DNA of 64,000 nt, taken from NCBI GenBank assembly GCA_965263195.1, contig OZ253664.1, forward strand, positions 2,037,045 through 2,101,044. Direction: 5' to 3'. The position numbers and the translations under genes are program-made. This stretch comes from Vicinamibacterales bacterium. GTDB lineage: Bacteria; Acidobacteriota; Vicinamibacteria; Vicinamibacterales; UBA8438. The notes under the pieces were generated by a model. The model searched no databases, was not told where the DNA came from, and was given only the letters and a program-made list of their open reading frames with translations. Of this stretch, positions 15,589 through 54,142 are shown one piece after another; position 1 is the first letter of the stretch; every line of letters begins with the position of its first letter.

Positions 15589-15699
15589 CTGCTTCCCTCC
15601 TCGGTGGGCACGAGGCGCGTGAGTGCCTCGAACCAGACGCGAAAATCAATGCCGGTCTTCACCACTTGTTCGCCTCTGGTGCGCCATGCCGCTCCGCCC

Positions 15700-18130: not shown

Positions 18131-18304
18131 TGGCAGCTACTCTCGCGAGCGGGCAGCAAATCAGTTTCAGATTGGCGAGGACGGCAAGTCAGCTCGCGGC
18201 GAGAGCCGTCTCCACGGGCACCTTAGGCCGAAGTTTCAGAGCTGATCGCGTATAAGTCACTGTATTTCGGGCGGTTATTGGATTTCAAGGGGTGTCGTTA
18301 ATGG

Positions 18305-20068: not shown

Positions 20069-20129
20069 ATACTAGATTAACTCACGTTAAAGGTCAAGTA
20101 TATTAGTGGCTACACAATGCACCCAGAAT

Positions 20130-21299
20130 TCACGACATCTTCTGCCCGCTCAAGGACTTACGCTGACTTTGCCGCTGAAACTTCGGCTTAGGGCCGGTGA
20201 GAGCCGGTGGCACGCGACGAGTCCAGCGCATCCGGTGGCCGTCACGGTCCACGAGTGGGTCGATGCCAAAACTTCTTTGCAGCGACGTGGCCCACCGCAG
20301 TCGCCTCGGTTTTTCCAGCCGTTCCTGCCCAAGAAGTGCGAACACGGCATCGTGTGTCTGGCACTTCACGCGTGGCGCGAGGAGACCGAAATACCGGATG
20401 GCGTGGCGGTAGCGGTCAGGCACGTGATCGGCGAGCGTGGCCAAGAACTCGGCCGGGCTGTACGTCGTCTCGACGGTGCGTTTGGTGCGCGTGTCCTTCG
20501 TCACAAATCGGATTTCTTGACGGGTGATCGTCCGGAACCGGTGCTGCGCGATGGGCGGCCGGCGGGCGTAACGGCCCGCATAGCCGAGGAACTGCTTCTT
20601 GCTTCGGAATCGCTTGACGTCGATGTTCCACCACCGTTCGTACTGGGTGGTGAGCAACCGCAGCAACGCGCTGCGAAACATGTCGGTATCAAGGACGCCG
20701 GCCCGCGCGGCCTCCCGCAGCAACGTGATGACGGCGTAGCGCCACATCGGCATTAGCGCCTTCCGGTCCAGCCGGGCTCGGGCACACCATTTCGTGCCGT
20801 CCTCGCGGAGACCGCCCTCGGACACGAGGATGTGCAGGTGGCAGTTGAAGTTCAGGTGCCGGCCGAAGGTGTGCGGGATGACCACGATCATCAGCCGGAT
20901 GCCGTACTTCTGTCGTGCCCATTGCTGCAGCACCTGCGCACCCAAGACGGGAAGATCGTGCAGGAGATGGCGGTTCCGCTGGAACAGCGGCCACAGCACA
21001 TCCGGCATGGTGAGGCAGACGTGGGCGTACGGGACGTCGGGCAGCTCTCGCCACTGGTCGCGCTGCCACGCTCGGGTCGCCTGATACCCGCAACTGGGAC
21101 AGGCCCGTGATTTACAGGTGTGATACACGACACGCTCTTCGGTGTTAGACGCGAAGATCTCCGCGCCGAGGGCCTCGGTGCCGCAGTCGACCACCTTGGC
21201 AAACGCCTCCCACACCGCGGGACGAGTGTCGTCACGGTCCCACTCGTCCCGATGCATAGCGAGGACGTCTCTGAGCGGTCGAGCGCGAGCCGGGGTCAT
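20130..21299 (-). CDS. IS91-family HUH/Y2 rolling-circle transposase-like protein
   Basis: ATG at 21299 overlaps the ParB-like stop (ATGA). Zinc-binding YHTCKSRACPSCG, HUH motif NCHLHILV and Y2 region LGYAGRYARRPPIAQHRF. Confidence 0.8.
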   Translation of the reverse strand: MTPARARPLRDVLAMHRDEWDRDDTRPAVWEAFAKVVDCGTEALGAEIFASNTEERVVYHTCKSRACPSCGYQATRAWQRDQWRELPDVPYAHVCLTMPDVLWPLFQRNRHLLHDLPVLGAQVLQQWARQKYGIRLMIVVIPHTFGRHLNFNCHLHILVSEGGLREDGTKWCARARLDRKALMPMWRYAVITLLREAARAGVLDTDMFRSALLRLLTTQYERWWNIDVKRFRSKKQFLGYAGRYARRPPIAQHRFRTITRQEIRFVTKDTRTKRTVETTYSPAEFLATLADHVPDRYRHAIRYFGLLAPRVKCQTHDAVFALLGQERLEKPRRLRWATSLQRSFGIDPLVDRDGHRMRWTRRVPPALTGPKPKFQRQSQRKSLSGQKMS

Positions 21300-22243
21300 C
21301 GGGTGTGCTTCTCCTGCAGCTCCTCGTAGCACATCTGCGTCACCACCACGGCTCGCCCTGGAACGTCCACGACCGCCACGGTGATGTCAGCCGGGTCGTA
21401 CATCGGGAGTCCACCGAGGACGGTGACGGCCACGCCGTCGGGTTGAGCCGGAGCACCGGTGTCAGCGTGCGCCCTGATCAATCGGCCGACCGTCTTCTTG
21501 ATGCCCCCCTGGTGCAAATGTGTCCAGAGCGCATCACGCTGCCCCTTGGGGTTCAGCGTGCGCCACTGCGAGGCCCGATGGATGCTGACCTCCCCCCGTA
21601 GGAGTCGCTCCCGCACCTCCGGAATCACGGTGGCCAGGAGCTGCTTGACCTTGGTCACGTTGCCGGTCGAGACGCCCGCCTCCGCGGCGATGTCCTTCCG
21701 CACGTCGCGGTGCTCGTGGTTCGTCAACTTTGACGAGGCCCGCGTGTCGCCAGTCGACAGTGCCGGTCGACGCCGTTCCCTGAGGTACGACTCCAGGCCC
21801 AGGGCCAACACGATCCGGCCGTAATCGTTCAGCCCCTGGCAGCGCCGGTGCCGTTGGATGACAACCTGGAGCGCCTCCTCGTCGGTCACGTCGTACTCGA
21901 AGCAGGGAAGCGTCGGCTGCTGGCGTTCGATCGCCACATGCCACCGCGCGTGTCCGTCGAGAATCGTGCCATCCGTGGTCGTCAATAACGGCTCGCGGAT
22001 CGACCCTGGCTGCTGCGCCACTCGTCGAACTCGTGCCGCGGCGATTGGAGCACACAGGTCGTGATAGGCCGGATGTGGCCGCAACGCCGCGGTGGGGCGA
22101 TACACCAATCGATCCCGATGCGGACCATCCTGGCTCTCGTGTGCGTTGGGAATGGCGTCCAGTCGGGTGCCACCGCCGCTCAGGTGCGCATCGCCCGGTA
22201 GGTCGGAGGAATCGCCAGGACCGGGCGTAGAGCGCGTAGTCAT
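21296..22243 (-). CDS. ParB/sulfiredoxin-like nuclease-domain protein
   Basis: ATG at 22243 overlaps the AlpA stop (ATGA). ..LRPHPAY..REPLLTTTDGTILDGHARWHVAIE.. is ParB N-terminal-domain-like; an HTH-like C-terminal part follows. Confidence 0.7.
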   Translation of the reverse strand: MTTRSTPGPGDSSDLPGDAHLSGGGTRLDAIPNAHESQDGPHRDRLVYRPTAALRPHPAYHDLCAPIAAARVRRVAQQPGSIREPLLTTTDGTILDGHARWHVAIERQQPTLPCFEYDVTDEEALQVVIQRHRRCQGLNDYGRIVLALGLESYLRERRRPALSTGDTRASSKLTNHEHRDVRKDIAAEAGVSTGNVTKVKQLLATVIPEVRERLLRGEVSIHRASQWRTLNPKGQRDALWTHLHQGGIKKTVGRLIRAHADTGAPAQPDGVAVTVLGGLPMYDPADITVAVVDVPGRAVVVTQMCYEELQEKHTR

Positions 22244-22458
22244 GGCTGTAGTTGCCGCTCCGCGGGAGCGATCTTCCGGCTCTTCTCGACTTGCGCGGTC
22301 AGCCAGGCGTTCACTTCGGCTTCGAGCCAGCCGACCGCTCGTCCGCCCAAGGAAACGGGGGCGGGAAACGCGCCTTGGGAGACTCGGAGATAGATCGTGC
22401 TTCGGGACAGCCCAGTGCGGGTCTTGACGGCCGGAAGTCTCAGTATCGTGTGCGGCAT
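22240..22458 (-). CDS. alpA: AlpA-family phage/island regulatory protein (excisionase-like HTH)
   Basis: ATG at 22458. MPHTILRLPAVKTRTGLSRSTIYLRVSQGAFPAPVSLGGRAVGWLEAEVNAWL. Confidence 0.8.
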   Translation of the reverse strand: MPHTILRLPAVKTRTGLSRSTIYLRVSQGAFPAPVSLGGRAVGWLEAEVNAWLTAQVEKSRKIAPAERQLQP

Positions 22459-23034
22459 CTTCACACCTCTCGCAGTGAAAACGGACTCAACGAGATCACG
22501 ATAGCTGAGCGATTTGGGCGATGAAATAGGGGACCCGCGGCGCCGCGTGGGCAGAAACGCACACGAATCCGGACCCTGGCGGGAGGCGGACATCCCAACC
22601 AATGTGACCCGTTCGGTCGAGGGCGGCGCAGAACCCTTATGGAATCAAAGGGATAGAGAGGCGTGGTTGGGCGAAAAAATTCCGCCCAACTTTTTACGTC
22701 GTGAGGTGTTTCCGGATGGTGGCCGCACTCCGACCAGCCGCGATGTTCTTCTTGGCAATCTGCTCGGCGTACCACCCTTTGGACATGTTCGGACGACGTT
22801 TCCGCATACCGCGGTGGGCTTTCCGCCAGCGTTCGTGGAGTGCCTGCGTGTCGAGCTTGCGCGCCTCACGCCGCGTCGTGCTCGGCGTGTAGTGCGGATC
22901 GGCGGTCGTCGCCGAATCGACCAATCGCCGAATGGCGTCGATGTCCAGGGCGTAGGCGCCGTGACCGAAGTCGACCAGATCTGGAGTAATGACGAGCCAT
23001 CAGTGCCACCTGCACCGGTCGTGCTCGAACGCTT

Positions 23035-24267
23035 CTACGCGCGCCTGAACAGCGGAATCACCTGGGCGTCGCCCTTGAGCGCATCCAGATAGTCGGCCCA
23101 CGCCTGCATCATCTTGCGTCGTTCAGGGAGATGCTCCGCGAAGTTGTAAGCGGCGCTGACGGCGTTGCGCTCAGCGTGGGCGAGCTGGCGTTCGATGACC
23201 TGATGGTTCCAGCCGCGCTCGTGCAGGAGGGTTGACGCCATGCTGCGAAAGCCGTGGCCGGTCATTTCGTCTTTCGTGTAGCCCATCCGACGCAGCGCTG
23301 CAAGCACGGCGTTCTCGCTCATCGGTCGTGCCGCTGACCGTGCGCTGGGGAAGACGAAGCTGGGCGCGTCGGGCTTGAGGGACAACACGCGGTTCGTCAG
23401 CGGCTCAAGCTCGCGCAGAATGTCAACGGATTGTCGGGAGAGCGGCACAATGTGCGGCTCTCGCATCTTCATGCGATGGGCGGGAATGCGCCATTCGGCC
23501 TCGTGGAGGTCGATTTCTGGCCACTGCGCCCAGCGCAGCTCGCCGGGGCGCACGAACACCAGCGGGGCCAGCCGCAAGGCGCACTTCGTCACGAAGAACC
23601 CTGCGTAGGTGTCGATCGCACGAAGCAGCTCACCAATGCGTTTCGGTTCGATGATAGAGGCGTGATGTCGCTCCTTGGTCGGAGGTAGGGCGCCGCGAAT
23701 ATCGGCGATCGGATCGCGCTCTGCCCGGCCTGTGGCAATGGCGTACCGGAAGACTTGTCCGCAGTTCTGCATGGCGCGGTGGGCGGTCTCCACTGCACCG
23801 CGGTTCTCTATCCGGCGCAGCACCGAGAGCACTTCCGGCGCCCTGATGTCGGCGACCGGGCGCTCGCCAAGCCAGGGAAACAGGTCGTGCTCAAACCGAC
23901 GCAAGATGCGATCGCCGTGGCTTGCGACCCACCCTGGCGAGAACTTCGCGTGCCACTCCCGAGCGATGGCCTCGAAGCTGTCTGCTCCCGCGACCGCGAG
24001 CTTCTGCGCTTTGCGGGCCTGCCCAGGATCGATACCGGCGGCAAGCTGCTGGCGAACCGCATCACGTCTCTCACGGGCCGATTTCAGACTAACATCCGGG
24101 TAGACCCCGAGCGAGATCCGCTTTTCCTTGCCGCCGAACCGGTATTTCCAGCGCCACCACTTTCCGCCGGCGGGGCTGACCTCCAGGTAGAGACCGCCGC
24201 CGTCGAACAGCTTGCGTGTCCTGGCCCGCGGCTTGACAGTGCTGACCGCGATGTTCGTCAGTGGCAT
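23035..24267 (-). CDS. int: P4-like tyrosine integrase (DUF4102-type N-terminus)
   Basis: ATG at 24267. MPLTNIAVSTVKP..GGGLYLEVSPAGGKWWRWKYRFGGKEKRISLGVYPDVSL N-terminal arm-binding domain, catalytic HGFRSMASTLL and ..LAHAERNAVSAAYN (Tyr). Confidence 0.9.
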   Translation of the reverse strand: MPLTNIAVSTVKPRARTRKLFDGGGLYLEVSPAGGKWWRWKYRFGGKEKRISLGVYPDVSLKSARERRDAVRQQLAAGIDPGQARKAQKLAVAGADSFEAIAREWHAKFSPGWVASHGDRILRRFEHDLFPWLGERPVADIRAPEVLSVLRRIENRGAVETAHRAMQNCGQVFRYAIATGRAERDPIADIRGALPPTKERHHASIIEPKRIGELLRAIDTYAGFFVTKCALRLAPLVFVRPGELRWAQWPEIDLHEAEWRIPAHRMKMREPHIVPLSRQSVDILRELEPLTNRVLSLKPDAPSFVFPSARSAARPMSENAVLAALRRMGYTKDEMTGHGFRSMASTLLHERGWNHQVIERQLAHAERNAVSAAYNFAEHLPERRKMMQAWADYLDALKGDAQVIPLFRRA

Positions 24268-24269
24268 GA

Positions 24270-24330
24270 GGGGGCAACTCCTGTTCGACGTTCCCCTGTT
24301 GCCCCCAGAGTTGCCCCACATTGGGGGCAG
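24270..24330. repeat. cluster of GTTGCCCC(C)A motifs at the integrase 5' end (candidate arm-type/att-proximal sites)
   Basis: GGGGGCAACT (24270-24279, inverted), TGTTGCCCCCA (24297-24307), AGTTGCCCCA (24309-24318) and TGGGGGCAG (24322-24330, inverted, degenerate). A TAAGACAC/GTGTCTTA hairpin follows at 24374-24399. Confidence 0.5.
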
Positions 24331-24410
24331 ATCTCCCCGGAAGAAACTGGACTCTATCGGACAGTATATCAGGTGTAAGACACCTATTTACAGTGTCTTA
24401 TCTGTCTTTC

Positions 24411-39297: not shown

Positions 39298-39338
39298 ATC
39301 CGGCGCTGAACACGACGCAGACGAAAGAGGACTCACCC

Positions 39339-42626: not shown

Positions 42627-43046
42627 GTGACGGTCGTCGCGGACGCCTCGGTGCTCGTGTCGGCTCTGGTCGACTCGGGTCGCGAAGGGCAATGGTCCGA
42701 ATCGGTGGTCGCGGTCGGCCAGCTTGCCGGCCCCGAGTTGGTCCTGGCGAAAACCAGCAACATTCTGCGCCGGCTGGAAATCGCGGGCGAAATCTCAGAT
42801 TTCGAGGCGACGAGCTCGCACAGAAACCTTCTGCAGCTCAACCTGGAGCTATTCCCCTTTGCGCCGTTTGCCGAGCGCATCTGGGCGCTGCGCGGCAACC
42901 TGACCAGCTACGACGCCTGGTATGTGGCGCTGGCCGAAGAACTTGATTGTCCGCTGGCGACCCTGGATCGCAGGCTCAGCCGCGCCCACGGCCCCAGGTG
43001 CACGATACGCGTACCGCCGATACCTCAGACCGAAGAGGACGCTTGA
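42627..43046 (+). CDS. vapC: PIN-domain toxin, VapC family
   Basis: GTG at 42627. VTVVADASVLVSALVD.. (first acidic residue), ..SYDAWYVALAEELDCPLATLDRRL.. is typical of the VapC C-terminal part. Confidence 0.8.
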   Translation: MTVVADASVLVSALVDSGREGQWSESVVAVGQLAGPELVLAKTSNILRRLEIAGEISDFEATSSHRNLLQLNLELFPFAPFAERIWALRGNLTSYDAWYVALAEELDCPLATLDRRLSRAHGPRCTIRVPPIPQTEEDA

Positions 43047-43506: not shown

Positions 43507-44004
43507 TCACCAGCCACGGGCGACTCCGCACGTCGAAACTCTTGAAGGCCGTGAAGACAACGGAATCTCGGCGCTACCGCCGCCACCGCGAATCCAATTC
43601 GACAATTCGATGATGGTCCGGTCACGTTCCGGCCCTTCTTTACGCACGGCACACTCCCAGACAACCATCACGCGCCATCCCGCCTCACGCAACTGACGAA
43701 GCTTGCTAGCATCACGCTCCACGTTGCGTGCAAACTTTTCCATCCACCAAGCCCGGTTTGACACCGGCGTCGTTGCATAGTGGCATCCGCCGTGACGATG
43801 CCAGAAGCAGCCGTTGATGAAGATGACCGCGCCGTACCGCGACAGCTTCAGGTCGGGACTGCCCGGAAGGGTCCGATCCGACGTTCGAAACCTGAAGCCG
43901 ATCCGGTGCAGCGACTGCCGAACCACCATCTCGGGCCGCGTATTGAGACGCCGCACCGCCGCCATCATGCGTGACCGCGTTTCACGATCGACAGTATCGG
44001 TCAT
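43507..44004 (-). CDS. vsr: very short patch repair endonuclease
   Basis: ATG at 44004 overlaps the upstream stop (ATGA at 44001-44004). ..TRPEMVVRQSLHRIGFRFR..PGSPDLKLSRYGAVIFINGCFWHRH.. Confidence 0.9.
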   Translation of the reverse strand: MTDTVDRETRSRMMAAVRRLNTRPEMVVRQSLHRIGFRFRTSDRTLPGSPDLKLSRYGAVIFINGCFWHRHGGCHYATTPVSNRAWWMEKFARNVERDASKLRQLREAGWRVMVVWECAVRKEGPERDRTIIELSNWIRGGGGSAEIPLSSRPSRVSTCGVARGW

Positions 44005-45980
44005 GCGCCGCTGACCACCACGATTCCGTCGCCGTCTGGCCGGAGCTCAAGCACATCGCCGTTTCCGAGTTGCAGCGCAGCTATCACAGATTCCAGTCCG
44101 GCTACGCTTCGCTCGTAAACGACGATCCGACCGATGTCCGCGCCGGTCGGGTCTTGAACTTGCCATTGTCCAGTCAAACCGATCACATCAGAAGCACTGA
44201 ACCTTCCAGACAACCGCGTGCGTGACGAAATCGGTATCCGCAAGCATACGTCCGACAACATATCCGCTTCTTCGACATCATCGCAATCACTCACGTCGTC
44301 CGTGGAAATCCGCGCGTGCAGTCCGTCAAGATCGATGTCCTCCGGTCGCGGTACAAACTTGTAGATACCCTCCTTGTACCCGACACCTGGTCGCGTATGT
44401 ACAAGAAATGGACTGTACGCGATCGTCGCTCGGGCATTTTCGCTGGTGAGCCCTTCACGAACCAGCCGTGTGTAGATGACATTGCTTGAAACAACTCGAC
44501 CATTCTCCACACAAATTTCGAGCAGCGCAAGATCGCGACCGCCGATGGAACACCAAGCAGGCCCCGGCCTTCTTCGAACTTCGCCGTCCTGGACATCGAA
44601 TAAGCCCGATCGCTCCGCTATTCCTTCCAACACAGGAACCGGTAGATCTGTAACCGTTCCATAAGGTATCGCCGACCGTACCCTGGAGTTTCTAGGAATG
44701 GACCGAACAAGATCAAGAATTTCCGCTCGACTCGTCGCGGAGAACACCTTGCATAGGTTCGTGAGGATATTGTTCCCCGTGATGCGAAAATTCTGGGGTG
44801 GCAAGGGTGGCCGCTTCCACAAATATCGACGACCACCATCAAGAAATTCCAGCCGGCTGCTGGCGTCAACGATCCTGCGCAGCATCTTCTCACCACAATC
44901 GATACGTCTTGCAATACTCCCTATTTCGGCGTAAAGCTCGCCGTTAACCTCCTCTCTCAGGCGGGCGATCCACTCAACCGTGGCTTCATCAGCATGATCG
45001 ACGACAATCTGACCGATACCACCTATTGCCCGCACCTTGAAGGGGAAGTCCAAACCGAAGATATCCGCACAGTGTTCTAACGTCTTGAAGTTGTTCTCAG
45101 GATCCGGATACGACTCGTAGCCGAACCGGGACACGATATCCGGAACGGATGCCGGCAAGATGCTCCTCGCTTCCACCAGTGCCGGCTCCCATCCTACGAA
45201 TCGCTGATTCGACGCTTTCTTCCGCAGCCCACGGTCGGCGGCGTCCAAGACCTGTCGGACTCGTTCCCTTGTGACCGCGTAGCGGAAGCCGTATTCAACG
45301 CCGTCGTCTGCGATTTCCTGTAGAGTCCGTCGCGGAGCACCTGCGACTCCATGGTACGCAACAAAACAAAGCGCCTGGTTCTCTTTCGGGGCAAGGAGTC
45401 GCGCCAACGTGTCCTGCAACTCATCCTTGAACGTCCCGTAGACTCTCGTCGTATCCTCCGGGGACCCTGCGGCCAAGTCATCAGCCGTCACGCTGCCCGG
45501 AGGCCGAAGACCGAGGGTTAACCCCCACTTCTGCAGCCCGTTCTCGATAACCTCAAGAACAGTTGGGTCCACGCCGGGCATCGCGAGAAGCTGATCGGGT
45601 GTCATATAGACCAGGGTGTCCACGCGATCGACATCGCTTCTGCGAAGGATTTCCATAGCGCTGACGAATTCCTCAACCTGACGGACCGGTCCCGCGTCGG
45701 CAATCTGCAGAGCTTCGTTGACGTCCGCATCTCGCATGCCGAGACGCAAACCCATCTTGCTCAACGTCCGCTCAACATCCCGCAGACTTGTTCGGCCCAT
45801 GTTCCGGATGGCCAATAACTGTTCTGGAGTCTGCCGGACGAGGTCGCCGACGCGAGTAATCTCCTGCTGCCTCAGACAGTTGTGGGACCGAACGGTGAGG
45901 TCAAGATCGTCGATATGCATCGATAGCACGTCCGCGACAGCGCTTTCTTCCGTTGCCGTTCGATCGGGTGTGTCGCTCAC
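44001..45980 (-). CDS. large uncharacterised protein with RNAP alpha-subunit CTD-like HhH module(s) and a sigma-70 region-4-like HTH
   Basis: IDDLDLTVRSHNCLRQQEITRVGDLVRQTPEQLLAIRNMGRTSLRDVERTLSKMGLRLGMRD aligns position by position with the E. coli alpha-CTD core ([52 protein letters not shown]). There is a second degenerate HhH (VYMTPDQLLAMPGVDPTVLEVIENGLQKWGLTLGLR), then RRTLQEIADDG..AVTRERVRQVLDAADRGLRK. About 400 C-terminal residues match no family I recognise. Start options: GTG 45980 (GAGG 8 nt upstream), TTG 46025, ATG 45920. Confidence 0.7.
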   Translation of the reverse strand: MSDTPDRTATEESAVADVLSMHIDDLDLTVRSHNCLRQQEITRVGDLVRQTPEQLLAIRNMGRTSLRDVERTLSKMGLRLGMRDADVNEALQIADAGPVRQVEEFVSAMEILRRSDVDRVDTLVYMTPDQLLAMPGVDPTVLEVIENGLQKWGLTLGLRPPGSVTADDLAAGSPEDTTRVYGTFKDELQDTLARLLAPKENQALCFVAYHGVAGAPRRTLQEIADDGVEYGFRYAVTRERVRQVLDAADRGLRKKASNQRFVGWEPALVEARSILPASVPDIVSRFGYESYPDPENNFKTLEHCADIFGLDFPFKVRAIGGIGQIVVDHADEATVEWIARLREEVNGELYAEIGSIARRIDCGEKMLRRIVDASSRLEFLDGGRRYLWKRPPLPPQNFRITGNNILTNLCKVFSATSRAEILDLVRSIPRNSRVRSAIPYGTVTDLPVPVLEGIAERSGLFDVQDGEVRRRPGPAWCSIGGRDLALLEICVENGRVVSSNVIYTRLVREGLTSENARATIAYSPFLVHTRPGVGYKEGIYKFVPRPEDIDLDGLHARISTDDVSDCDDVEEADMLSDVCLRIPISSRTRLSGRFSASDVIGLTGQWQVQDPTGADIGRIVVYERSVAGLESVIAALQLGNGDVLELRPDGDGIVVVSGA

Positions 45981-45990
45981 TTCGGTGACC

Positions 45991-47355
45991 TCACAGCACT
46001 GACACCGCCCCCATGCCGACGACAAAGCCGAGCTGCGGCGGTACGGCAGAACCGATCATGTTGGCGTAGTCACTCCGTGTCACCGTACCCGTCCTCGGCA
46101 GCCAGTTGAAGTCCTCTCCGAATCCTTGGAGCTTGGCTCCCTCATGTGGCGTGAGAGACCTAGGCTCCAACGGGTGCGTGAATCGACCTCTACCGGGGGA
46201 AAGAAACCCCGTCGTGATGGTAGGAGCCACCTGGTTCGGCCTCATGCGGCCGTACACCGAAAGGTAGTTGTGGTTCTTCAATCGGTGGCAATCGGGACGC
46301 TCGTCGTCCGGTAGATCGTATTCTTGACGTTCCGTGAGAAAACGTACCCGCCTCTGGTTTTCGTCCGACAACTGAGACGGTCTATCGAACGTCGTGCCAG
46401 GGTCCACATCTGCCAACAAGGCCAGCGCCTCCGACGCGGTCGGAGCGGAAATCTGCAGCCGAACAAAATCCGATATCGTAACGATCCGCTCGGACTTTCC
46501 GGCAATCAGGAAATGGCGGCGGCGCTCTTGCGGTGTTCCATAGTCGGACGCCGTCAACGTGAATCCGTTGCCGTCGATCCGATAACCAGCGAACTCAAGC
46601 AGCGACAACGCGCGGCCCACGACATTCTGCTTCGATCGTTTCACTGCGGGAACGTTCTCTACAACTATCACGCTGGCCCCGAGAGCAACCCCCGCAACCA
46701 CAGCGTCAAGGTAAAGTTCGTTCCGGTAGTCGATGCGACGCGTCCGATTGTTAAGGTTGGAATTGCCTTCGCATGGTGGGCCGGCAAGCAGGATGTCGAC
46801 ATTGCCCGCGAGCACTGCCAGTTCGCGGCTCAGATAAACCGATTCCATATCCGGAAGCGATTTTTCTCCCTTTGTACGCAACCGGTAATCGACGAGATTC
46901 TCCACGTTCTCCCGAACTGTCCTAAGTGGTCGCACGTTTCTGGCGTATACATCCAGCGCCGGCCGCGAAAGATCCGCCGCCAGTGCGAACACCGGCCGCA
47001 CGCCGACTGCCTCGATTGCCTGCTTGACGCCTATCGACAATCCACCACATCCGCAGAACAGGTCGACTACGTTGACACGGGCCCTTCCGATGCCACGATA
47101 GAGACTTGGACGCCCACCTTTGAGCTGTGACAAATTCCAGAACCGCGCCAACCTAGCACAATCCGCCTTATCATCTTCCGGCGTGGGGGTCGTTGCACCG
47201 CGAAAGGACATCCACGACCGCGAAGTGAACCGACCGGCGGTAGCATCGCGAACGAGGGATCGATCTTCAAGATCGTAGCCGACCGTCACCGTACCGGCAT
47301 CGTCCCGGTCGTCAACTTCGGGTGGCTCGCATCCCGAAGGTGCTATCTGCACCAT
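45991..47355 (-). CDS. dcm: DNA (cytosine-5)-methyltransferase
   Basis: Motif I VVDLFCGCGGLS, IV LLAGPPCEGNS, VI VVENVPA, VIII QERRRHFLIAG, LTPHEGAKLQGFGEDF, X IGSAVPPQL. ATG at 47355; GTG at 47388 is also possible. Confidence 0.9.
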   Translation of the reverse strand: MVQIAPSGCEPPEVDDRDDAGTVTVGYDLEDRSLVRDATAGRFTSRSWMSFRGATTPTPEDDKADCARLARFWNLSQLKGGRPSLYRGIGRARVNVVDLFCGCGGLSIGVKQAIEAVGVRPVFALAADLSRPALDVYARNVRPLRTVRENVENLVDYRLRTKGEKSLPDMESVYLSRELAVLAGNVDILLAGPPCEGNSNLNNRTRRIDYRNELYLDAVVAGVALGASVIVVENVPAVKRSKQNVVGRALSLLEFAGYRIDGNGFTLTASDYGTPQERRRHFLIAGKSERIVTISDFVRLQISAPTASEALALLADVDPGTTFDRPSQLSDENQRRVRFLTERQEYDLPDDERPDCHRLKNHNYLSVYGRMRPNQVAPTITTGFLSPGRGRFTHPLEPRSLTPHEGAKLQGFGEDFNWLPRTGTVTRSDYANMIGSAVPPQLGFVVGMGAVSVL

Positions 47356-48101
47356 GATTCCCGGTCTTCCCAAAGTCGCGTGACCCACCGATACGCCTTG
47401 ACTTCATCAAATAATTCGAACGCGATTGTCGCTTGACGGCGCCGTATTTCCTTGGCCAAGTCCCTGAATCCGGCCGGGATGGTCGGATCATTCCCCACTC
47501 CTCGCTGCAGCTTGAGGTCGCGGACCACTTTGACAAAAGCACGCGCCATCACCGGCGAACTTCCGAAGTTGACGTCGATGACGTGGGAATCCCAGAGGTC
47601 GACGTCGGCGTACTCGATGCCGTCATAGGGGTCAACTGCGCCTTCGACATACATCATGCTCGCGCAAATCCATAGCTTCGCGAACATGCCTTTCTTGAGC
47701 TCTTCAAGGCCGTAGTAGATCCCCCTGCCCGGTCCGGACTCGGACAGCTTCTGATGTCCATTCCCATAGCGCCAGTCCACGATATCGGCACCGAAACCAT
47801 CATCCATGAACGTTAACCATCGCCAGAAATCCGCATCCCCGGCCATTACCGGCGGCAACCGGAGGGTGCCGTGGACTATCGGTGCGCATTGGCTGTCGAA
47901 TTCCGCGACCGGTATTTTGTCGTCTCGTGCGGAGGTTGCGAGGTCACAACATTGGTTCAGACAGTCTCTGGCTGTCGACTCCTGGAAGTCAGCGCCCGAC
48001 TTGCGCAGTACGTCACGCTGGTTGAGTCGTGCTTCGCCGCTCTCCTTGCGCAATATGTACACCGCTCTGGCGGTTTCAAGTCCCAACCCAGGATAAGCCA
48101 A
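47343..48101 (-). CDS. uncharacterised 252-aa protein (operon member)
   Basis: TTG start at 48101 preceded by a strong GAGGAGG SD (48105-48111) that overlaps the stop of the upstream gene. No motif recognised (..DADFWRWLTFMDDGFGADIVDWRYG..). Confidence 0.6.
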   Translation of the reverse strand: MAYPGLGLETARAVYILRKESGEARLNQRDVLRKSGADFQESTARDCLNQCCDLATSARDDKIPVAEFDSQCAPIVHGTLRLPPVMAGDADFWRWLTFMDDGFGADIVDWRYGNGHQKLSESGPGRGIYYGLEELKKGMFAKLWICASMMYVEGAVDPYDGIEYADVDLWDSHVIDVNFGSSPVMARAFVKVVRDLKLQRGVGNDPTIPAGFRDLAKEIRRRQATIAFELFDEVKAYRWVTRLWEDRESWCR

Positions 48102-48110
48102 TACACCTCC

Positions 48111-48595
48111 TCACAACTTCATGGTCGCGAAGACCTTGTCCGCCCCTGCGAGCTTCCAGCACCTCGGCATCAGTTTGGCGCGCCCCCCAGGGCCACGTCC
48201 ATACTCCTGCTTCGCTGCCTCCAGGCTCATTCCGAATTCATTCTCGATCAAATCCGCGACGACACTGGTCAAGCTGTTCGGTTCCTCGCTGCCTCCGTCC
48301 GTGCCCAGAACATGAGACAGCACGTCGGCGTATACGTGCGCCGCAATGTTCCGAGCGATGTGCTCGGACGCCGCACTGGCCTGCCTGGAACTCAAGGCGC
48401 GAAACTTGTCCTCGAAATCCTTGTTCAGCAAGACTTCAAACAACTCGTTCGGGGGCCGATCAGGATCCTCACCGCGCCAGTGAACATAGTAGACCGTCCG
48501 ACGGTCCAGTCCTTGCTTCACCATCTCGTCGGGTTCGACGAACCTAATGGGAACGTCGAGCCCGCGATTCGGGACACGTATCTTGAACGTCTTGG
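48111..48595 (-). pseudogene. C-terminal half of IS-interrupted operon gene X
   Basis: TKTFKIRVPNRGLDVPIRFVEPDEM... continues in frame from 50391 once the IS plus one target copy (1789 nt) is removed. Confidence 0.7.
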
Positions 48596-50390
48596 TAGCT
48601 AGTGCCCGCCAGAAAACCCCCTTGCGGGCGGAAATCTGCGACAAATCCGGCCCACCTCGGGCGTGATTCCCACCACGGATCCTGCCACGACGGCGGTACT
48701 TGGCGGCCGGCGGGGAGCGACCGGCAAAGAATCAGTGCGGAGGTCCGGCTGCCAAGGATGGGGAAGCCCTCCCATCTTTCGACGGGTCGGAGCACGGCAT
48801 GCTTTAGGGGAAGCGGCCGGTCAGGCGGCGAGTCGTCGTCGTTTGCGCTCGCGCTTTTGCAGGAGCAACCCGATGCGATGCAGGTTGGCGGCCAGTACCG
48901 ACAGTGCGACGGTGCGCGCGAAGCCGTCGGCGCCATGGCTGCGGACACGGTCGAGCCCCCGGTGTTCCAGCCCATTGATGGCCGACTCGATTGCCGGATG
49001 CGCACGCCGCGCGGCCGCGAAGGGTTCCTCCGCCTCCCGTTCGCGGTCGGCTCTGGAAAGATACCCCTTTCTCGGCAGCGCGTTGAGGTCGAGCAGCGCG
49101 TCGAGCTTGATTCGGTTGTCAGGGCTGTGAAAGCCCCGGTCGAAGCTGCACGCCCGCAGTTCGGGATACCGCGCCTGGGCTTCGCTCACCATCGGCGCCG
49201 CCACGTCGACGTCCTCGCCCTCCCACAGGATCTTGTGGTGCAGGATGAATTGATGCTGGTCTTCGATGAGAGCTACAGGAACCCCGAGTTCTACCGGCGT
49301 GCCTGCCTTGCCCTTGGAAACCCAGCGAGTATGCTCCTCGAAGACCGAGAACACCTTCTCCTCGTGAGCAATCGCCTCGCCCCGCAGGAGTCGGCGCTCG
49401 ACCTGGCCGAGCTGGCGCTGGGCATGCGCGATAAAGCCCTGGATTGATTGGCAGGTGGTTTCCTCGACGCCCTTGTCCCGCAACTCGTCGAGGGTCTCCA
49501 TGGTCCGAGCGACCAGTGCACGGCAGCGCGCCAAGTACGCCTCCACCCGCTCCGGACGGCGCTTGGCCCGCCGCGTCGAACGCACCTGGTTGAACAGTTT
49601 CCTGACCTCCTTGGACAGATGCCGCCACTGACGCCATCCCCCCACCGCGTGTCTCCCAGCCGCCCGCCCGGTCTCCCGCAGCAGGCAGCGCAGCGCGTCC
49701 CACAACAGGCTGACATCCGTCGGATAGTGCACGTCCGTCTCGACCACGAACGAGTCACACCGCCCGCGCAATCGCTCGCCAGGCTTTTTTTTAGCGACCG
49801 TATGGCCGCTCTCCACCACCAACCGCCCGACTTCTGACAGCAGCTCCGGCGTCAACAGACACACATTGTCGAGCACCGTTTGGTACTCGTAATACGTCTT
49901 GTCGGCGAAATCGCCGTGGCCCAGGAACGCGCGCACCGTCTCGTGATGGTTCGCGAGGTCGTGAAGGCGGTCGAAGTCGCAACCCAGACCCTGCTTCAAC
50001 ACCCCCAGCACCAAAATCCGCCAGAGCGCCATCCCCGGACGCCCGACCTCCCGGTCGGTCTCCGGCAGGACATGCTCGTCGAGCAGCGCAAACAACCGCG
50101 CGCGCAACTCCTCGTCAGACCAAATGTGCTGAAGCCCCTTCAACACCGCCGGGATGTCGTCCCGCGACTTGGGGTCGATCCAAATCTTCTCCACCGGAAC
50201 CTGACCAAACTCGAACTGCCGTCTGTGAACTTCTCTCATGACGTCGACGTCTCGAAGATTCCCCCGAAATGGGCCGATAGTGGAAATTCCACCCACAAAA
50301 CTACGACATCTCAACGTTCTTCGCCACTTGAAATCCGAAATGCGACTCGTAGAATCAACCTATTACGGGTTTTCTGGCGGACACTAGCTA
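48596..50390. mobile_element. IS element (IS5/IS1182-superfamily-like) with terminal inverted repeats
   Basis: TAGCTAGTGCCCGCCAGAAAACCC (48596-48619) versus GGGTTTTCTGGCGGACACTAGCTA (50367-50390) gives 23/24 inverted identity. The palindromic TAGCTA makes the target duplication ambiguous (2, 4 or 6 bp). The core IS is about 48601-50385. Confidence 0.8.
48821..50239 (-). CDS. DDE transposase of the IS element
   Basis: ATG at 50239 (the track start at 50314 is TTG). ..CDSFVVETDVHYPTDVSLLWDA.., ..CSFDRGFHS.., ..ESAINGLEHRGLDRVRSHG... IS family not resolved. Confidence 0.8.
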   Translation of the reverse strand: MREVHRRQFEFGQVPVEKIWIDPKSRDDIPAVLKGLQHIWSDEELRARLFALLDEHVLPETDREVGRPGMALWRILVLGVLKQGLGCDFDRLHDLANHHETVRAFLGHGDFADKTYYEYQTVLDNVCLLTPELLSEVGRLVVESGHTVAKKKPGERLRGRCDSFVVETDVHYPTDVSLLWDALRCLLRETGRAAGRHAVGGWRQWRHLSKEVRKLFNQVRSTRRAKRRPERVEAYLARCRALVARTMETLDELRDKGVEETTCQSIQGFIAHAQRQLGQVERRLLRGEAIAHEEKVFSVFEEHTRWVSKGKAGTPVELGVPVALIEDQHQFILHHKILWEGEDVDVAAPMVSEAQARYPELRACSFDRGFHSPDNRIKLDALLDLNALPRKGYLSRADREREAEEPFAAARRAHPAIESAINGLEHRGLDRVRSHGADGFARTVALSVLAANLHRIGLLLQKRERKRRRLAA

Positions 50391-50850
50391 GCGAGGCTCC
50401 CGTCGGAATCGCTATCCCCCATTGATTCACGATGTCCGACCGTGGTGTTGCAACGACTACAAGATCAAATAGCGTGGATCTGGAGAATCTGTGCAGCACC
50501 TCATTCAGCGACCAGACGTCTTCGGGCACTTCGCGCATCGGCCATGAGTTCACTGTTTCGAACTTGCAAAGACGACGGTCCCGGCAAATCACTGACACGA
50601 CGATGTCGTCCGCCTGCACTCCAGTGTCAGCCGTAAGCCTCGCCGTGTCGATGTCGAAGAACAACTCCGGCGTCAATCCGTCCCAATCCTGTTCGCCCTC
50701 AAGGTAGCGAGTCACATTGTTGGCTCGATCCGTCGGATCCTCGCTCATGCTCAGCCGGAGCCCCACGTTTTCCAGGCTCGGGTCGGATGTAGGAAACGGC
50801 CTGGTCACCCTATGTTCGACCGCCCTCCAAGTTAGTGGCCGTGCGATCAT
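50391..50850 (-). pseudogene. N-terminal half of IS-interrupted operon gene X
   Basis: ATG at 50850 overlaps the GHKL gene stop (ATGA at 50847-50850). MIARPLTWRAVEH...NQWGIAIPTGASLA, then the IS sequence. Confidence 0.7.
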
Positions 50851-52733
50851 TGTGCTCGGTCCTCGCATCGGGCCACTTCGATATCCCATCGAGTAGTCCA
50901 CGCTGGGTGAACCTCTGCGCGAGCTTCCGCATCCACCCGTTCTCCTCGTCCAAGTGTCGACATGAAAGTCGTCCGGCCGTCTGGGCCGCTGCCCCTGTAC
51001 TCCCCGGTGGCCGTTCTCACGTGCGGCGCAAGCACATCCATCGGCCTCATGTTATCGTCGGCCAATACCTTGAGAGACAGCGTGACTTCGACGTCAACGG
51101 ATTCAACCGGCGCGTGAGTCGACAAGCCGATACGGAACACCACAAATGCGTCTTGTGCGTTACCGTTCTGCGTCCGCCCAGAATCGATCGTTTCTATCGT
51201 GAACGCGCGCGAACGGGACTCCGGCTTGACGGTAGTCCGGCTTCCGGTACGACGGGTGAACAGATTTCGTAACGTTCTGCGCAGGAACTCTGCTGCGTTG
51301 GTCCGTTCAACCGCCGGCGCATCCATCTGCCGCGTCTGGAAATCACGGGTCAGGTTGCGCAGCCGCTGTTTCGTGAGGCGAATGAAGTCACGACCCCAGT
51401 CGTACTTGCCGCGCAACCGATCGCCGTTCTCGACCCAGTCGTCATGTGTCGGTGGCTCGGAAAATACGAACGCCTGCATCGTGTCCGGGTCAACATCGGG
51501 CGAAAAGACACCGACGACTGGTGGTCTGTCTTCGTGCGCGAACTCGCTCGAATACTTGATGACCAGTCCGTCTCGAACGAACGCAATGCGATTCGTGAGA
51601 GCGACGTGGTCATCGCTCTCACTTGATGCGTCGATCGCCTTCAGCACGAGTCGTCCGGCCTTACGCGGTCCACCCGCCGGATTGACTCTGACGTCCTTCA
51701 CGTCGTACTTGTCGCCCACGGTGTTGGCGTTGATCTGCTTGTGGCAGTCGATGAACGGACTCAACTCGCGCCGGGATCGCGGATTGCGTCCCGGCATCGA
51801 TTCACCTTCATCAAGGAACTCGAAATTCACCCGCCGACCGCTATGATGACGTGCCATCGTCGGCCACCACCACGTCTCACAGCTCTCCACGACCTCGTTC
51901 ATCGTAGCGGCGAACGCAGGAATCACGACGGTTGTCCCCGTTTCCTCGTTTGACCGTTCCGGTAGACCGAGTGTTCGAACCCACGCGTGGGCGTCGTCGT
52001 CGACTAGGGGCTTCCGCGGGCTTCGTTCCTCACCACTGTCGTTTCCGTAGTACGCCTGTCCCGCATAGTCGATGTCTCCGACCGAGTGCTGCGGGAGGAA
52101 CGCGGTGGCCATCGCACGACAGCGGGCGCCGGTAGTGTTGTGGTCTGGACGGAACGTGGAGTAGTAGGCGACGGTTCGAATCTCCGAACTCAACGCGAAC
52201 GCCATCTTGCCGTACCCATACGATCCGAGCGTACGTATGGCGTCGGTGTCTCCCTCCTCTTCGTCTTCCCACTTGAGACTGCCACCGATCGAGAGAACCA
52301 GGTTGAAGAAACGATCCTGCTTGGACCGGCGCCGATTCCAGTGACCACCCAACCCGTTGGCATTGAAATCGGATATTAAAAGGACCGGCAGCGGAACGTC
52401 GGGCTTCCCGATGTCGTCCAGCACGTGGTTGCCTCTTCCGAACCAGTTGTGTGCGGTTCGAAAGGCTCGCCTCCGGTCGGCAAGAACGCGAAGATCCAGC
52501 GCATCGACGAAGAGCTTCTTGCCGTTTCCAATCAGCACGTCCCGTTCGAATCGGATCCGGACGGAGTCATCGCTATCCCGACGACGTTCGTCCAGACTGT
52601 TCTGAACGGCTTCGCGAACGAGCAGATCAGTTGGACCCAGATTCGACCCGCGTAGCGGATCGGCCATGTTGCTGGCCGGCAAGATGCCGGCTCCGTCCTT
52701 CAGGAAGGCCCAGGATTGCGCCGGGAAAGTCAT
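50847..52733 (-). CDS. GHKL (Bergerat-fold, MORC/HATPase_c_3-like) ATPase
   Basis: ATG at 52733 (the track start at 52742 is TTG). N-box LVREAVQNSLDE, G1-like LLISDFNANGLGG, G2-like LGSYGYGKMAF. Large uncharacterised C-terminal region. Confidence 0.75.
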   Translation of the reverse strand: MTFPAQSWAFLKDGAGILPASNMADPLRGSNLGPTDLLVREAVQNSLDERRRDSDDSVRIRFERDVLIGNGKKLFVDALDLRVLADRRRAFRTAHNWFGRGNHVLDDIGKPDVPLPVLLISDFNANGLGGHWNRRRSKQDRFFNLVLSIGGSLKWEDEEEGDTDAIRTLGSYGYGKMAFALSSEIRTVAYYSTFRPDHNTTGARCRAMATAFLPQHSVGDIDYAGQAYYGNDSGEERSPRKPLVDDDAHAWVRTLGLPERSNEETGTTVVIPAFAATMNEVVESCETWWWPTMARHHSGRRVNFEFLDEGESMPGRNPRSRRELSPFIDCHKQINANTVGDKYDVKDVRVNPAGGPRKAGRLVLKAIDASSESDDHVALTNRIAFVRDGLVIKYSSEFAHEDRPPVVGVFSPDVDPDTMQAFVFSEPPTHDDWVENGDRLRGKYDWGRDFIRLTKQRLRNLTRDFQTRQMDAPAVERTNAAEFLRRTLRNLFTRRTGSRTTVKPESRSRAFTIETIDSGRTQNGNAQDAFVVFRIGLSTHAPVESVDVEVTLSLKVLADDNMRPMDVLAPHVRTATGEYRGSGPDGRTTFMSTLGRGERVDAEARAEVHPAWTTRWDIEVARCEDRAQ

Positions 52734-52944
52734 GGCGGGCAAATATTAATCACTTGACTACGGTACAAACAAGCCGGCCGGTCATGACGCTGACATGGTG
52801 CTCACGGTTCCGTGTCCGCCGCGACATGGAAGCGACCCGTGTCCTCGCCGGCGACGCCAAACGCGCAGCGCCCGCCCGCGGGTGGAATGGGCATTGATTG
52901 GGCGCGGCAGCCAGAACCACAACGAGGCCAGTGTGGAGAAAAAA

Positions 52945-53021
52945 TGGTGCCGATGCAGGGACTTGAACCCCGGACCTAGCGGATATGAGCCGCTCGCTCT
53001 AACCAGCTGAGCTACACCGGC
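52945..53021 (-). tRNA. tRNA with CAT anticodon (elongator Met, or Ile2 if lysidine-modified)
   Basis: The reverse complement reads GCCGGTGTAGCTCAGCTGGTTAGAGCGAGCGGCTCATATCCGCTAGGTCCGGGGTTCAAGTCCCTGCATCGGCACCA. It has a 7-bp acceptor stem, D and T arms, a CTCATAT anticodon loop and an encoded CCA. The paired G1-C72 argues against an initiator. Confidence 0.9.
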
Positions 53022-53089
53022 ATCCCACGGGCTCGTGGAAACGCTCCATTGTATCAGCCTGCGGCCAAAGCCCCGCTGCATTCGGGCGG

Positions 53090-54142
53090 CTACGTGATCA
53101 GCATCGCATCGCCGTAGCTGTAGAACCGGTAGCGCCGCGCGACCGCGTCGGCGTACGCCGCAAGCACCCGCTCGCGGCCGCCGAACGCAGACACCAGCAC
53201 CAGCAGCGACGAGCGCGGCAGGTGGAAGTTCGTGAGCAGCTTGCCGACCACGCGATACTCGAAGCGCGGTCCAATGTACAGGTCGGTCGATCCGGTCCCG
53301 GCTGCGATCCGGCCGTCGGCGCGGGCCGCCGCGGACTCCAGCACGCGCGTCGTGGTCGTGCCGACCGCCACCACCCGGCGCCCTTCGTCCAGGGCGCGGT
53401 TGATGGTGCGGGCCGCGGCAGCGGTGATCTCGAACGGCTCCGCCGCGACGCTGTGCTGCTCGACATCCTCGCCGCGGATCGGCTGGAACGTCCCGTAGCC
53501 GACGTGCAGCGTGACGGCCGTCCGCTCGATGCCGCGTGCGTCGAGCGCCTGCAGCAGGTCCTTCGTGAAGTGCAGCCCGGCCGTCGGCGCGGCGACCGAC
53601 CCGCGGGCTCGCGCGTACACCGTCTGATACCGGCCGCGATCGTCCGGCGCGTCGGTCCGCTTGATGTAGGGCGGCAGCGGCATATGGCCGATCGCATCGA
53701 TCGCCTCGTCGACGTCCCGCCCCGCGTCCGCGGTCAACCGGACGGTACGCCGGCCGTGATAACGGCTGGCCAGTACCTCCAGCCGCAGCCGGTAGCCGCC
53801 GCCTTCGAAGACGGCGCGCGCCCCTTCCCGGAGCTTCTGCCCCGGATGCAGCAGCACGTCCCATTCGCCGCTGTCCGCCCTGGACAGCAGCAGGCACTCG
53901 ACCGCACCGCCGCTGGGATCGCGGCGGCCGAGCAACCGCGCCGGATAGACGCGCGTGTCGTTGACGACGAGCAGGTCTCCCGGTTCCAGCAGCAGCGGCA
54001 GGTCGGCCACCTGGCGGTGCGCATGCCGCCCGGTCCGCCGGTCCAGATGGAACAGACGCGCGCGGTCGCGGACGGGGTGCGGCTGCTGCGCGATCAACTC
54101 GGCAGGCAGTTCGTAGTCGAATTCGGAGACCGGGGTGGGCAA
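53090..54142 (-). CDS. queA: S-adenosylmethionine:tRNA ribosyltransferase-isomerase
   Basis: ..SEFDYELPAELIAQQP.., ..GDLLVVNDTRVYPARL.., ..MPLPPYI.., ..AAPTAGLHFT... The start codon at 54142 is TTG. Confidence 0.9.
   Translation of the reverse strand: MPTPVSEFDYELPAELIAQQPHPVRDRARLFHLDRRTGRHAHRQVADLPLLLEPGDLLVVNDTRVYPARLLGRRDPSGGAVECLLLSRADSGEWDVLLHPGQKLREGARAVFEGGGYRLRLEVLASRYHGRRTVRLTADAGRDVDEAIDAIGHMPLPPYIKRTDAPDDRGRYQTVYARARGSVAAPTAGLHFTKDLLQALDARGIERTAVTLHVGYGTFQPIRGEDVEQHSVAAEPFEITAAAARTINRALDEGRRVVAVGTTTTRVLESAAARADGRIAAGTGSTDLYIGPRFEYRVVGKLLTNFHLPRSSLLVLVSAFGGRERVLAAYADAVARRYRFYSYGDAMLIT

Follow-up and report, generated by a model that had tools for sequence, protein, structure and literature searches.

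A putative DNA-reading protein with RNA polymerase alpha and sigma modules in a Dcm- and Vsr-linked operon of a Vicinamibacterales bacterium

Results

A chain of predicted nucleic-acid-binding folds between dcm and vsr

We analyzed a 64,000-nucleotide stretch of DNA (hereafter the window) from a Vicinamibacterales bacterium (assembly GCA_965263195.1, contig OZ253664.1), and in particular one gene on its minus strand, here called R, for which we predict a product of 659 amino acids (aa). A first-pass annotation, made by reading the sequence alone, had described R as a stand-alone protein lying between dcm and vsr and mimicking modules of RNA polymerase (RNAP). The location was borne out by profile searches, which identified genes for a C5-cytosine DNA methyltransferase and for a T:G mismatch endonuclease on either side. 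R itself proved to be a chain of nucleic-acid-binding folds without any detectable enzyme domain. The three genes, and the domains of R (residue numbers from the GTG start), are listed below in order of their coordinates in the window.

43507..44004 (-): vsr, T:G mismatch endonuclease (TIGR00632, E=2.9e-39; Pfam Vsr, E=8e-23)
44001..45980 (-): R, 659-aa protein with alpha-CTD, sigma region 4, winged-helix and B3-like parts, from GTG 45980
44004..44249 (-): R residues ~578-659, seven-stranded, two-helix barrel, B3/cradle-loop-like (Foldseek)
44340..45197 (-): R residues ~262-547, array of four winged helices (AlphaFold2 [AF2] and Foldseek)
45201..45446 (-): R residues ~179-260, sigma-70 region 4 (4.1 + 4.2) helix-turn-helix (HTH), recognition helix VTRERVRQ
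45501..45698 (-): R residues ~95-160, degenerate second alpha-CTD-like helix-hairpin-helix (HhH) domain (hhalign against the first copy)
45717..45929 (-): R residues ~18-88, canonical alpha-CTD, i.e., the C-terminal domain of the RNAP alpha subunit (Pfam and Foldseek)
45991..47388 (-): dcm, C5-cytosine DNA methyltransferase (PF00145, E=2.6e-32; PADLOC DruM-type, E=5e-79)

The longest open reading frame (ORF) for R, from the first TTG, spans 44001..46025 (-) and would encode 674 aa. Besides this TTG at 46025 there is an alternative ATG start at 45920, which was the one chosen by the gene caller (639 aa; P0001). The GTG start is plausible because conservation among homologues extends upstream of the internal ATG (the start of MHIDDL); the window protein reads VLSMHIDDL at this point, and relatives read NLMAMHIEEL and NVMSMPIDKL. 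The dcm stop codon lies 10 nt before the GTG (junction sequence), and at the other end of the gene the vsr ATG overlaps the stop codon of R (ATGA). Judged by their sequences, the ORFs of R, dcm, and vsr are all intact in the window. An AF2 model of R, based on 25 homologues, had a mean predicted local distance difference test score (pLDDT) of 84.1.

The Dcm protein has an N-terminal extension of ~100 residues ahead of its methyltransferase domain, and its catalytic motif is PCE, not PCQ. Its best PADLOC match was DruM, the methylase of Druantia type II.

A canonical alpha-CTD and a degenerate second copy

The Pfam model RNA_pol_A_CTD (PF03118) matched residues 11-74 of R (E=3.2e-22, 78.5 bits), and Foldseek superimposed the AF2 model on the alpha-CTD of E. 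coli (3n4m_B) with a root-mean-square deviation (rmsd) of 0.7 Å over 66 columns, at 47% identity. The fold is the same as that of the RNAP domain and the homology is clear, just as the first-pass annotation had claimed; the range that it gave for the domain (residues ~38-100) fits the 674-aa ORF from the TTG, but not the 659-aa ORF whose coordinates it used. Mapped by direct reading against the E. coli sequence, R keeps most residues of the "265 determinant," i.e., the equivalents of R265, N268, N294, G296, and S299, with K298 replaced by T. In the family alignment R31 (=R265) and G62 (=G296) are invariant and N34 (=N268) is at least 90% conserved, whereas the acidic 261-type patch, a site of contact with sigma, varies across the family. 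That the DNA-contact residues are conserved and the acidic patch is not speaks for DNA binding as the function under selection.

R also has what the RNAP domain lacks, i.e., a second, degenerate copy. The first-pass annotation had seen a further HhH unit here, and hhalign of residues 95-160 against residues 18-90 gave a probability of 99.4% (E=8.8e-22). This second copy is without the DNA-contact residues, and its helices were modeled with a pLDDT of ~79-89. Among relatives, the number of alpha-CTD copies ranges from one to three.

We considered whether R might be a paralogue of RpoA, and rejected this. The N-terminal domain of alpha, through which the subunit dimerizes and is assembled, is absent, so that R cannot be an RNAP subunit. 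The rpoA models TIGR02027 and PRK05182 matched only via model positions ~222-323, with 82-87 bits against equivalog cut-offs of 228-302.

A sigma-70 region 4 fused to the alpha-CTD

The segment that follows is, on the strength of family-level comparison, a complete sigma-70 region 4. The window protein by itself gave borderline matches, with E values of 0.009-0.09 (NCBIfam RpoD_Cterm, E=0.009; phmmer against 3n97_A, E=0.07), and Pfam gave no match to sigma region 4 at E<0.1. The family profile, however, matched SigA1 (9dvs_G, E=1.8e-9) and sigma70 region 4 (1tlh_B, E=7.6e-9) in the PDB, and 46 of the 68 distant relatives matched Pfam Sigma70_r4. Aligned residue by residue with 3n97_A, 1tty, and 4g6d, the segment covers all of regions 4.1-4.2. 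The resemblance to sigma that had been noticed by eye is upheld at this level.

The RERxRQ residues read the -35 hexamer in primary sigma factors. The recognition helix of R, VTRERVRQ, is identical to the -35-reading helix of the group 1 factors sigma-70/SigA save for V in place of I, and V236, R238, E239, R240, R242, and Q243 are invariant in the family. R differs from sigma-70 factors in having an insertion of ~10 residues ahead of this helix, in being fused to an alpha-CTD within one chain, and in having no regions 1-3. Pfam Sigma70_r2, which covers core binding and -10 recognition, matched neither the window protein nor any of the 68 relatives; the possibility that R is a sigma factor was rejected, region 4 being present and regions 1-3 absent. 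The alpha-CTD and region 4, which come together on UP/-35 promoter DNA (PDB 3N97), are thus covalently joined in R. Both gave significant profile hits, and the proposal that the protein is built from modules of the transcription machinery stands.

Winged helices and a B3-like barrel in the C-terminal 400 residues

The remaining ~400 residues had been called unassignable in the first-pass annotation, a verdict that we can now revise. In the AF2 model of residues 263-659 (pLDDT 85.6; predicted template modeling score [pTM] 0.70), four consecutive winged helices are followed by a disordered linker and then by a barrel. The best Foldseek matches of the winged-helix (wH) array were to proteins with tandem wH domains, i.e., UFL1/DDRGK1 (8b9x, E=8.6e-4), TFIIIC tauB, STK19, RPC62, and ESCRT-II.

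The barrel, which is retained in distant relatives, resembles plant B3 domains in its seven-stranded open form with two helices, and it stands in a restriction-like context, as do the B3-like domains of enzymes. Its Foldseek match to the B3 domain of VAL1 (6fas_A) had a probability of 1.00, a TM-score of 0.54, an rmsd of 3.5 Å, and E=0.08. Taken together, the matches to the B3 domains of VAL1, ARF, TEM1, and VRN1 had probabilities of 0.96-1.00 and TM-scores of 0.48-0.54 but E values of 0.08-0.3; across the ARF, TEM1, RAV1, VRN1, and At1g16640 domains the probabilities ranged from 0.60 to 0.99. The B3-like fold is common to EcoRII-N, BfiI-C, and the C-terminal DNA-binding domains of NgoAVII/CglI. 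Because EcoRII, BfiI, and NgoAVII were not among the hits listed, and because a profile of the barrel sequence found nothing significant in the PDB (AbrB, at E~0.55, and uL13 were below significance), we hold the B3-like assignment with only moderate confidence. The barrel also differs from B3 domains in its size (~80 aa versus ~110), in having no match at the level of sequence, and in not being fused to a nuclease. Its putative role is to read sequence or methylation.

No nuclease or other enzyme family was detected in R using Pfam, NCBIfam, or PADLOC, nor by Foldseek searches of the PDB and of viral structures (BFVD); in BFVD, the C-terminal model gave weak winged-helix matches only. The C-terminal module is without a Pfam model. 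There is no conserved acidic or histidine cluster in this module, the near-invariant residues of the wide family being N, K, G, S, and Y. A classical Type II endonuclease (PD-(D/E)XK, HNH, PLD, GIY-YIG, etc.) was rejected as an identity for R, there being no nuclease fold or motif although a methyltransferase adjoins; the C-terminal region did not turn out to belong to a known family of such enzymes.

A widespread family with a shared domain order

There were 36 close homologues of R in an index of 5.8 billion proteins. A profile of the C-terminal module reached much further, matching 613 representative clusters (at the 50% identity level, and from several phyla) at E<=1e-3 and 226 at E<=1e-10. 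These members share one domain grammar, i.e., one to three copies of the alpha-CTD, then sigma region 4, then the C-terminal module. The alpha-CTD contacts and the residues of the sigma-4 helix are near-invariant even in relatives of <25% identity. Scans with the C-terminal profile of species-representative genomes, IMG/VR, and JGI metagenomes yielded very few or no close relatives, and the matches to the VTRERVRQ pattern in a first genome scan were swamped by sigma factors.

Searches of plasmids and phages by tblastn returned only matches to the alpha-CTD of RpoA, plus one hypothetical protein from a Pseudomonas megaplasmid, pMPPla107. This protein of P. amygdali (316 aa; locus L020, 9001-9855) resembles sigma-4 and the first winged helix at 25% identity (E=2e-6). 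It sits among the replication genes dnaE, dnaB, and dnaG, with no methylase or ATPase adjoining.

In the literature on DUF6339, on PDC-M33, and on the combination of RNA_pol_A_CTD with Sigma70_r4, we found no published account of the family or the system. What is already known comprises the alpha-CTD, sigma-4, arrays of winged HTH (wHTH) domains in defense proteins, and operons combining Dcm, Vsr, and GHKL ATPases; for the protein family, its fusion of alpha-CTD and sigma-4, and the six-gene operon set out below, we found no description.

R belongs to a conserved six-gene operon

Three further genes, which we call A, B, and C, precede dcm in the operon. In the window, B is present as two fragments.

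47343..48101 (-): gene C, DUF6339 protein (Pfam DUF6339, E=1.4e-7)
48114..48605 (-): gene B, C-terminal half, pseudogene fragment (tblastn, residues ~150-312 of intact B)
50359..50886 (-): gene B, N-terminal half, pseudogene fragment (tblastn, residues ~3-170 of intact B)
50847..52742 (-): gene A, 631 aa, putative GHKL-type ATPase (PADLOC PDC-M33A, E=5.7e-16, residues 37-239)

The order A - B - C (DUF6339) - Dcm - R was conserved at seven other loci (L001, L002, L004, L013, L017, L019, and the contig of P0088), which include relatives matching the C-terminal-module profile at only E~1e-18 to 1e-25. At these sites A has ~450-660 aa, B ~310-325 aa, and C ~240-260 aa, and the methylase gene and R, where neither is broken, are separated by 2-27 nt. 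Using tblastn, we found Vsr at all six of the fetched loci with a complete operon (L001, L002, L004, L013, L017, and L019); the survey covered these six, the P0088 contig lying outside it. In the close subfamily vsr comes right after R; in the distant subfamily it lies upstream of A. The first-pass annotation had placed R in the slot of the restriction endonuclease within an M-R-V cassette. The M-x-V arrangement is real, but the cassette is not one of three genes, since A-B-C-Dcm-R-Vsr forms a conserved operon of six.

The operon has its closest named relatives in metagenome-assembled genomes (MAGs) of Vicinamibacterales. One Vicinamibacterales MAG (L013, 8183-12488) has all of A, B, C, Dcm, and Vsr, and of the reader gene only a short piece was matched, within a 4.3-kb interval; the gene may be disrupted there too. 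At L002 (473-4157) the operon follows directly downstream of genes for phage capsid, prohead protease, and portal, which makes a prophage a possible carrier of the system at that site. The dcm call at L002 is in two pieces (of 273 and 148 aa), for which a frameshift is a possible cause.

Gene A had been labeled a GHKL ATPase in the first-pass annotation. Across 31 homologues, reaching down to ~20% identity, its invariant residues fall into four groups (E44, N48, and D51; D125, G130, and G133; G173, G176, G178, and K179; and G269, which is followed by a near-invariant T270), and these columns match the order and form of the four motifs of the Bergerat fold. A search with Pfam of the 31 homologues gave nothing relevant, and neither Pfam nor PDB profiles revealed relatives of A. 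An invariant cluster, E429/P430/H433/D434 (consensus SEPPTHDDW), lies in its C-terminal part. Gene B had no relatives beyond its own family in Pfam or the PDB, and no conserved acidic cluster. In gene C, residues H77, D89, K136, D166, D168, and H173 are invariant across distant operons, and our best guess, as yet unproven, is that C is a candidate hydrolase. Profiles of A, B, and C found nothing among PDB sequences.

A second, unrelated operon architecture was seen at L006, L015, and L016 (and, partly visible, at L011 and L018), where a protein of ~190 aa, S, is followed by an ATPase of ~550 aa and then by a long reader, R'. This ATPase matched Pfam HATPase_c_3 (E=3.5e-12). When profiles were compared with hhalign, there was no detectable relationship between A and the Pfam-confirmed HATPase_c_3 partner, nor between S and A, B, or C. 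Given these failures, the GHKL label for A stays at the level of its motifs: the motifs fit the original claim, but in this type of operon Pfam, PDB profiles, and hhalign did not back it up.

The only second-type locus for which upstream DNA was available, L006, carries in that DNA an integrase, a C5-methyltransferase (E=2e-58), and a glycosylase of the HhH-GPD/EndoIII/Mig type. The glycosylase gene (6638-7339 (-), in a Rickettsiales MAG) encodes an EndoIII-type enzyme with an Fe-S motif, and lies beside the C5-methylase in the place of Vsr. The T:G repair function seems to have been replaced here by a non-homologous enzyme. Since both architectures carry a reader, an ATPase, a methylase, and a gene of T:G-repair type (the latter two at L006 in the second case), the conserved partnership, as predicted from gene content, is one of reader, ATPase, cytosine methylase, and deamination repair.

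The operon is disrupted in the window and lies on a low-GC island

The two fragments of gene B are separated by an insertion sequence (IS), and a tRNA gene lies beside the start of gene A.

48600..50388 (-): ISNCY-family IS within gene B (transposase 48821..50314; NCBIfam transpos_ISNCY_1, E=2e-132)
52945..53021 (-): tRNA-Met beside the start of gene A (ARAGORN)

Junction sequences showed terminal inverted repeats of ~21 nt at the ends of the IS, with CTAG at both. No near-identical copy of this ISNCY element was found in the plasmid collection. Because the IS splits gene B, the system is probably inactive in this genome.

The GC content is 0.57-0.64 over 42-54 kb of the window, compared with ~0.70 in the flanks, and the tRNA-Met gene, at the edge of this low-GC island and directly upstream of gene A, is its likely integration site. 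No repeat of the 3' end of tRNA-Met was found elsewhere in the window within 3 mismatches, and the far boundary of the island is thus undefined. Low GC content, tRNA-Met, the IS, and a nearby toxin gene together give the surroundings of the operon the features of a mobile island. The toxin gene, an ORF for a PIN-domain (VapC-type) protein at 42627-43046 (+) (Pfam, E=3e-10), lies just past vsr within the low-GC stretch. A 371-aa ORF at 52782..53897 overlaps tRNA-Met and is probably spurious.

Comparison with known systems

In type-2 BREX, the DNA-binding/sensing half of PglW has an alpha-CTD-like domain followed by three wHTH domains (PMC12839542). R is like PglW (and like the wHTH triads of the BrxA type) in that an alpha-CTD-like domain precedes several (w)HTH domains in the setting of methylation-based defense. 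The PADLOC model for PglW matched the window protein with E=8e-8, and the stretch of a relative containing alpha-CTD and sigma-4 with E=1e-14, in each case over model positions ~790-950 only. Unlike PglW, R stands alone, ends in a B3-like barrel, and is partnered by Dcm, Vsr, and a putative GHKL ATPase. Pfam found no kinase or NERD domain in the window protein. We rejected orthology with PglW: R has no NERD nuclease, tandem kinase, or inactive STAND domain, and its partners are not PglX, PglZ, or BrxC.

GHKL ATPases of the MORC/paraMORC type have been linked to Dcm and Vsr in restriction-modification (R-M) operons, and were predicted to couple recognition and cleavage sites (Iyer, Abhiman, and Aravind, 2008; PMC2292703). 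The present operon is similar in that it joins a putative ATPase bearing GHKL motifs with a cytosine methylase and Vsr on a mobile island. However, gene A is too divergent for the Pfam HATPase models, and, unlike in the GHKL R-M systems of 2008, there was no SF-II helicase or restriction-endonuclease-fold protein besides Vsr in the operons examined here. A reader composed of alpha-CTD and sigma-4 is not mentioned in that paper, in which the terms "HhH," "sigma," and "alpha subunit" have zero occurrences (PMC2292703).

PDC-M33 is an unvalidated three-gene candidate embedded in known defense loci (bioRxiv 10.1101/2024.01.29.577857, supplementary file 8). It resembles our operon in being a multi-gene cassette, with PDC-M33A matched by A and PDC-M33C weakly matched by C (E=0.005-0.017); gene B did not match PDC-M33B in any of three operons. 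The match of A is confined to its N-terminal ~200 residues, and PDC-M33 as listed is without a methylase or an alpha-CTD protein.

Discussion

The reading that we favor, with moderate confidence, is that R recognizes DNA, without being catalytic itself, as the reader subunit of a multi-subunit, restriction-like defense system governed by cytosine methylation. Such a system would form a putative ATP-dependent complex, probably directed against phages. The first-pass annotation had spoken of a DNA-recognition/effector subunit: recognition is favored, all of the folds in R being DNA-binding ones, but no effector or nuclease activity is visible.

The mechanism that we propose is as follows. Dcm would mark host DNA, and Vsr would repair T:G mismatches arising by deamination of 5-methylcytosine (5mC), limiting the mutational cost of 5mC to the host. 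The reader would bind through its alpha-CTD (to the minor groove of A/T-rich DNA), through its sigma-4 helix (to a -35-like hexamer), and through the winged helices, while the C-terminal barrel or one of the winged helices would sense a cognate site that is unmethylated. On unmodified foreign DNA, the reader would recruit or license ATPase A together with B and C. The attack by these three might be cleavage, for which the DUF6339 protein or the HDD motif of A's C-terminal portion are the candidate nucleases, or it might be ATP-driven clamping.

Several points weigh against this reading. DNA binding, methylation, and defense are predicted properties for every member of the family, and the copy in the window belongs to a disrupted operon. 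No nuclease was identified in the operon save Vsr, and the word "restriction" is taken from the context. The assignment of A to the GHKL ATPases is at the level of motifs, the profile and profile-profile tests having failed, and the similarity of the operon to PDC-M33 is partial, PDC-M33 itself being unvalidated. Finally, the B3-like assignment of the barrel is purely structural, at Foldseek E values of 0.08-0.3, and the B3-like domains of restriction enzymes, EcoRII-N and BfiI-C, were not in the top 50 Foldseek matches.

A more specific version of the same idea, which we offer tentatively and consider rather unlikely, is that the fusion rebuilds the unit with which RNAP holoenzyme recognizes the upstream part of promoters, i.e., the UP element plus the -35 hexamer. 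The complex would then scan invading DNA for unmethylated promoter-like sites, where the ATPase would cut, or would clamp and silence the DNA in the manner of MORC. A phage that depends on the sigma-70 transcription of its host could not mutate such sites away. In a variant of this proposal, the same modules might serve as bait for phage proteins that act as anti-sigma factors or modify alpha.

Bait might also be the whole function of the protein. Phage anti-sigma factors bind region 4, and ADP-ribosyltransferases modify R265 of alpha. R could be a decoy or guard whose alpha-CTD and sigma-4 mimic RNAP surfaces that are attacked by early phage proteins, their capture or modification triggering the ATPase/effector module. 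The mimicry is close, with 47% identity and 0.7 Å to the alpha-CTD, R265 kept (the comparison being with E. coli, as the host rpoA and rpoD lie outside the window), and regions 4.1-4.2 present in full with a recognition helix of the group 1 type; the variation between one and three copies of the alpha-CTD is also what bait might show. Yet it is the DNA-contact set, i.e., the equivalents of R265, N268, and G296 and the RERxRQ residues, that is invariant or near-invariant, while the acidic 261-type patch varies. The other 400 residues are further DNA-binding folds, and the way in which R is strictly linked with a methyltransferase and with T:G repair fits the marking of DNA as self or non-self better than the sensing of proteins. 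We strongly doubt that R is such a decoy. A role in transcription, with R sitting on the UP/-35 regions of promoters either to control its own operon, as a giant analogue of the controllers of R-M systems, or to repress host or phage promoters, seems quite improbable. R has precisely the modules that read the UP element and the -35 hexamer, with their reading residues intact, and it has many HTH and wH domains and no enzyme domain. On the other hand, a protein of 640-1050 aa with five to eight DNA-binding domains is unlike the small Xre-type controllers, and R is the last core gene, following close behind dcm (2-27 nt). That it occurs together with an ATPase in two operon architectures unrelated to each other points to a structural partner more than to a regulator. 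R-M controller (C) proteins are small (~80-100 aa), have an Xre-type HTH, and are encoded upstream of R genes; we rejected this identity for R, which has 659 aa, is the last core gene, and has an HTH of the sigma type, not the Xre type.

To the idea that R is a cryptic restriction endonuclease, i.e., the R of an M-R-V cassette with a new nuclease site hidden in its C-terminal module, we give very little credence. The gene does sit directly after M and before V, the polar residues D381, N403, K411, Y522, and H528 of that module are invariant or near-invariant, and B3-like domains are established as the DNA-binding parts of EcoRII, BfiI, and NgoAVII. However, Pfam, NCBIfam, and PADLOC showed no nuclease family, the confident AF2 models (pLDDT 84-86) matched only winged-helix arrays and B3 barrels, and in the wide family it is N, K, G, S, and Y that are kept near-invariant, without an acidic or histidine cluster.

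If R is indeed a reader of the kind that we favor, a widespread family of methylation-linked defense systems (at least 613 clusters at 50% identity, from several phyla) would have a recognition subunit derived from the promoter-reading modules of RNAP, and no recognizable nuclease. This would be a new kind of specificity subunit for restriction-like immunity, and would provide a function for DUF6339 and for two unannotated families (A and B). The system would, moreover, be a tractable one in which to ask whether the GHKL ATPases that bacteria have in R-M settings cleave or clamp DNA, a question that dates from the MORC/paraMORC proposal of 2008. The fusion of alpha-CTD with sigma-4 is, in addition, a natural experiment in the cooperation of the two modules on DNA.

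Other features of the window

A second region of low GC content (0.62-0.64), at 14000-24400, contains a DDE transposase (18305..20068), an IS91-type Y2 transposase (20130..21332), and a tyrosine integrase with an arm-binding domain (23035..24321), and is likely to be another mobile element. The window also encodes, at 38754-40685 (+), a DUF1552 (HXXSHH) protein (Pfam, E=7e-96).

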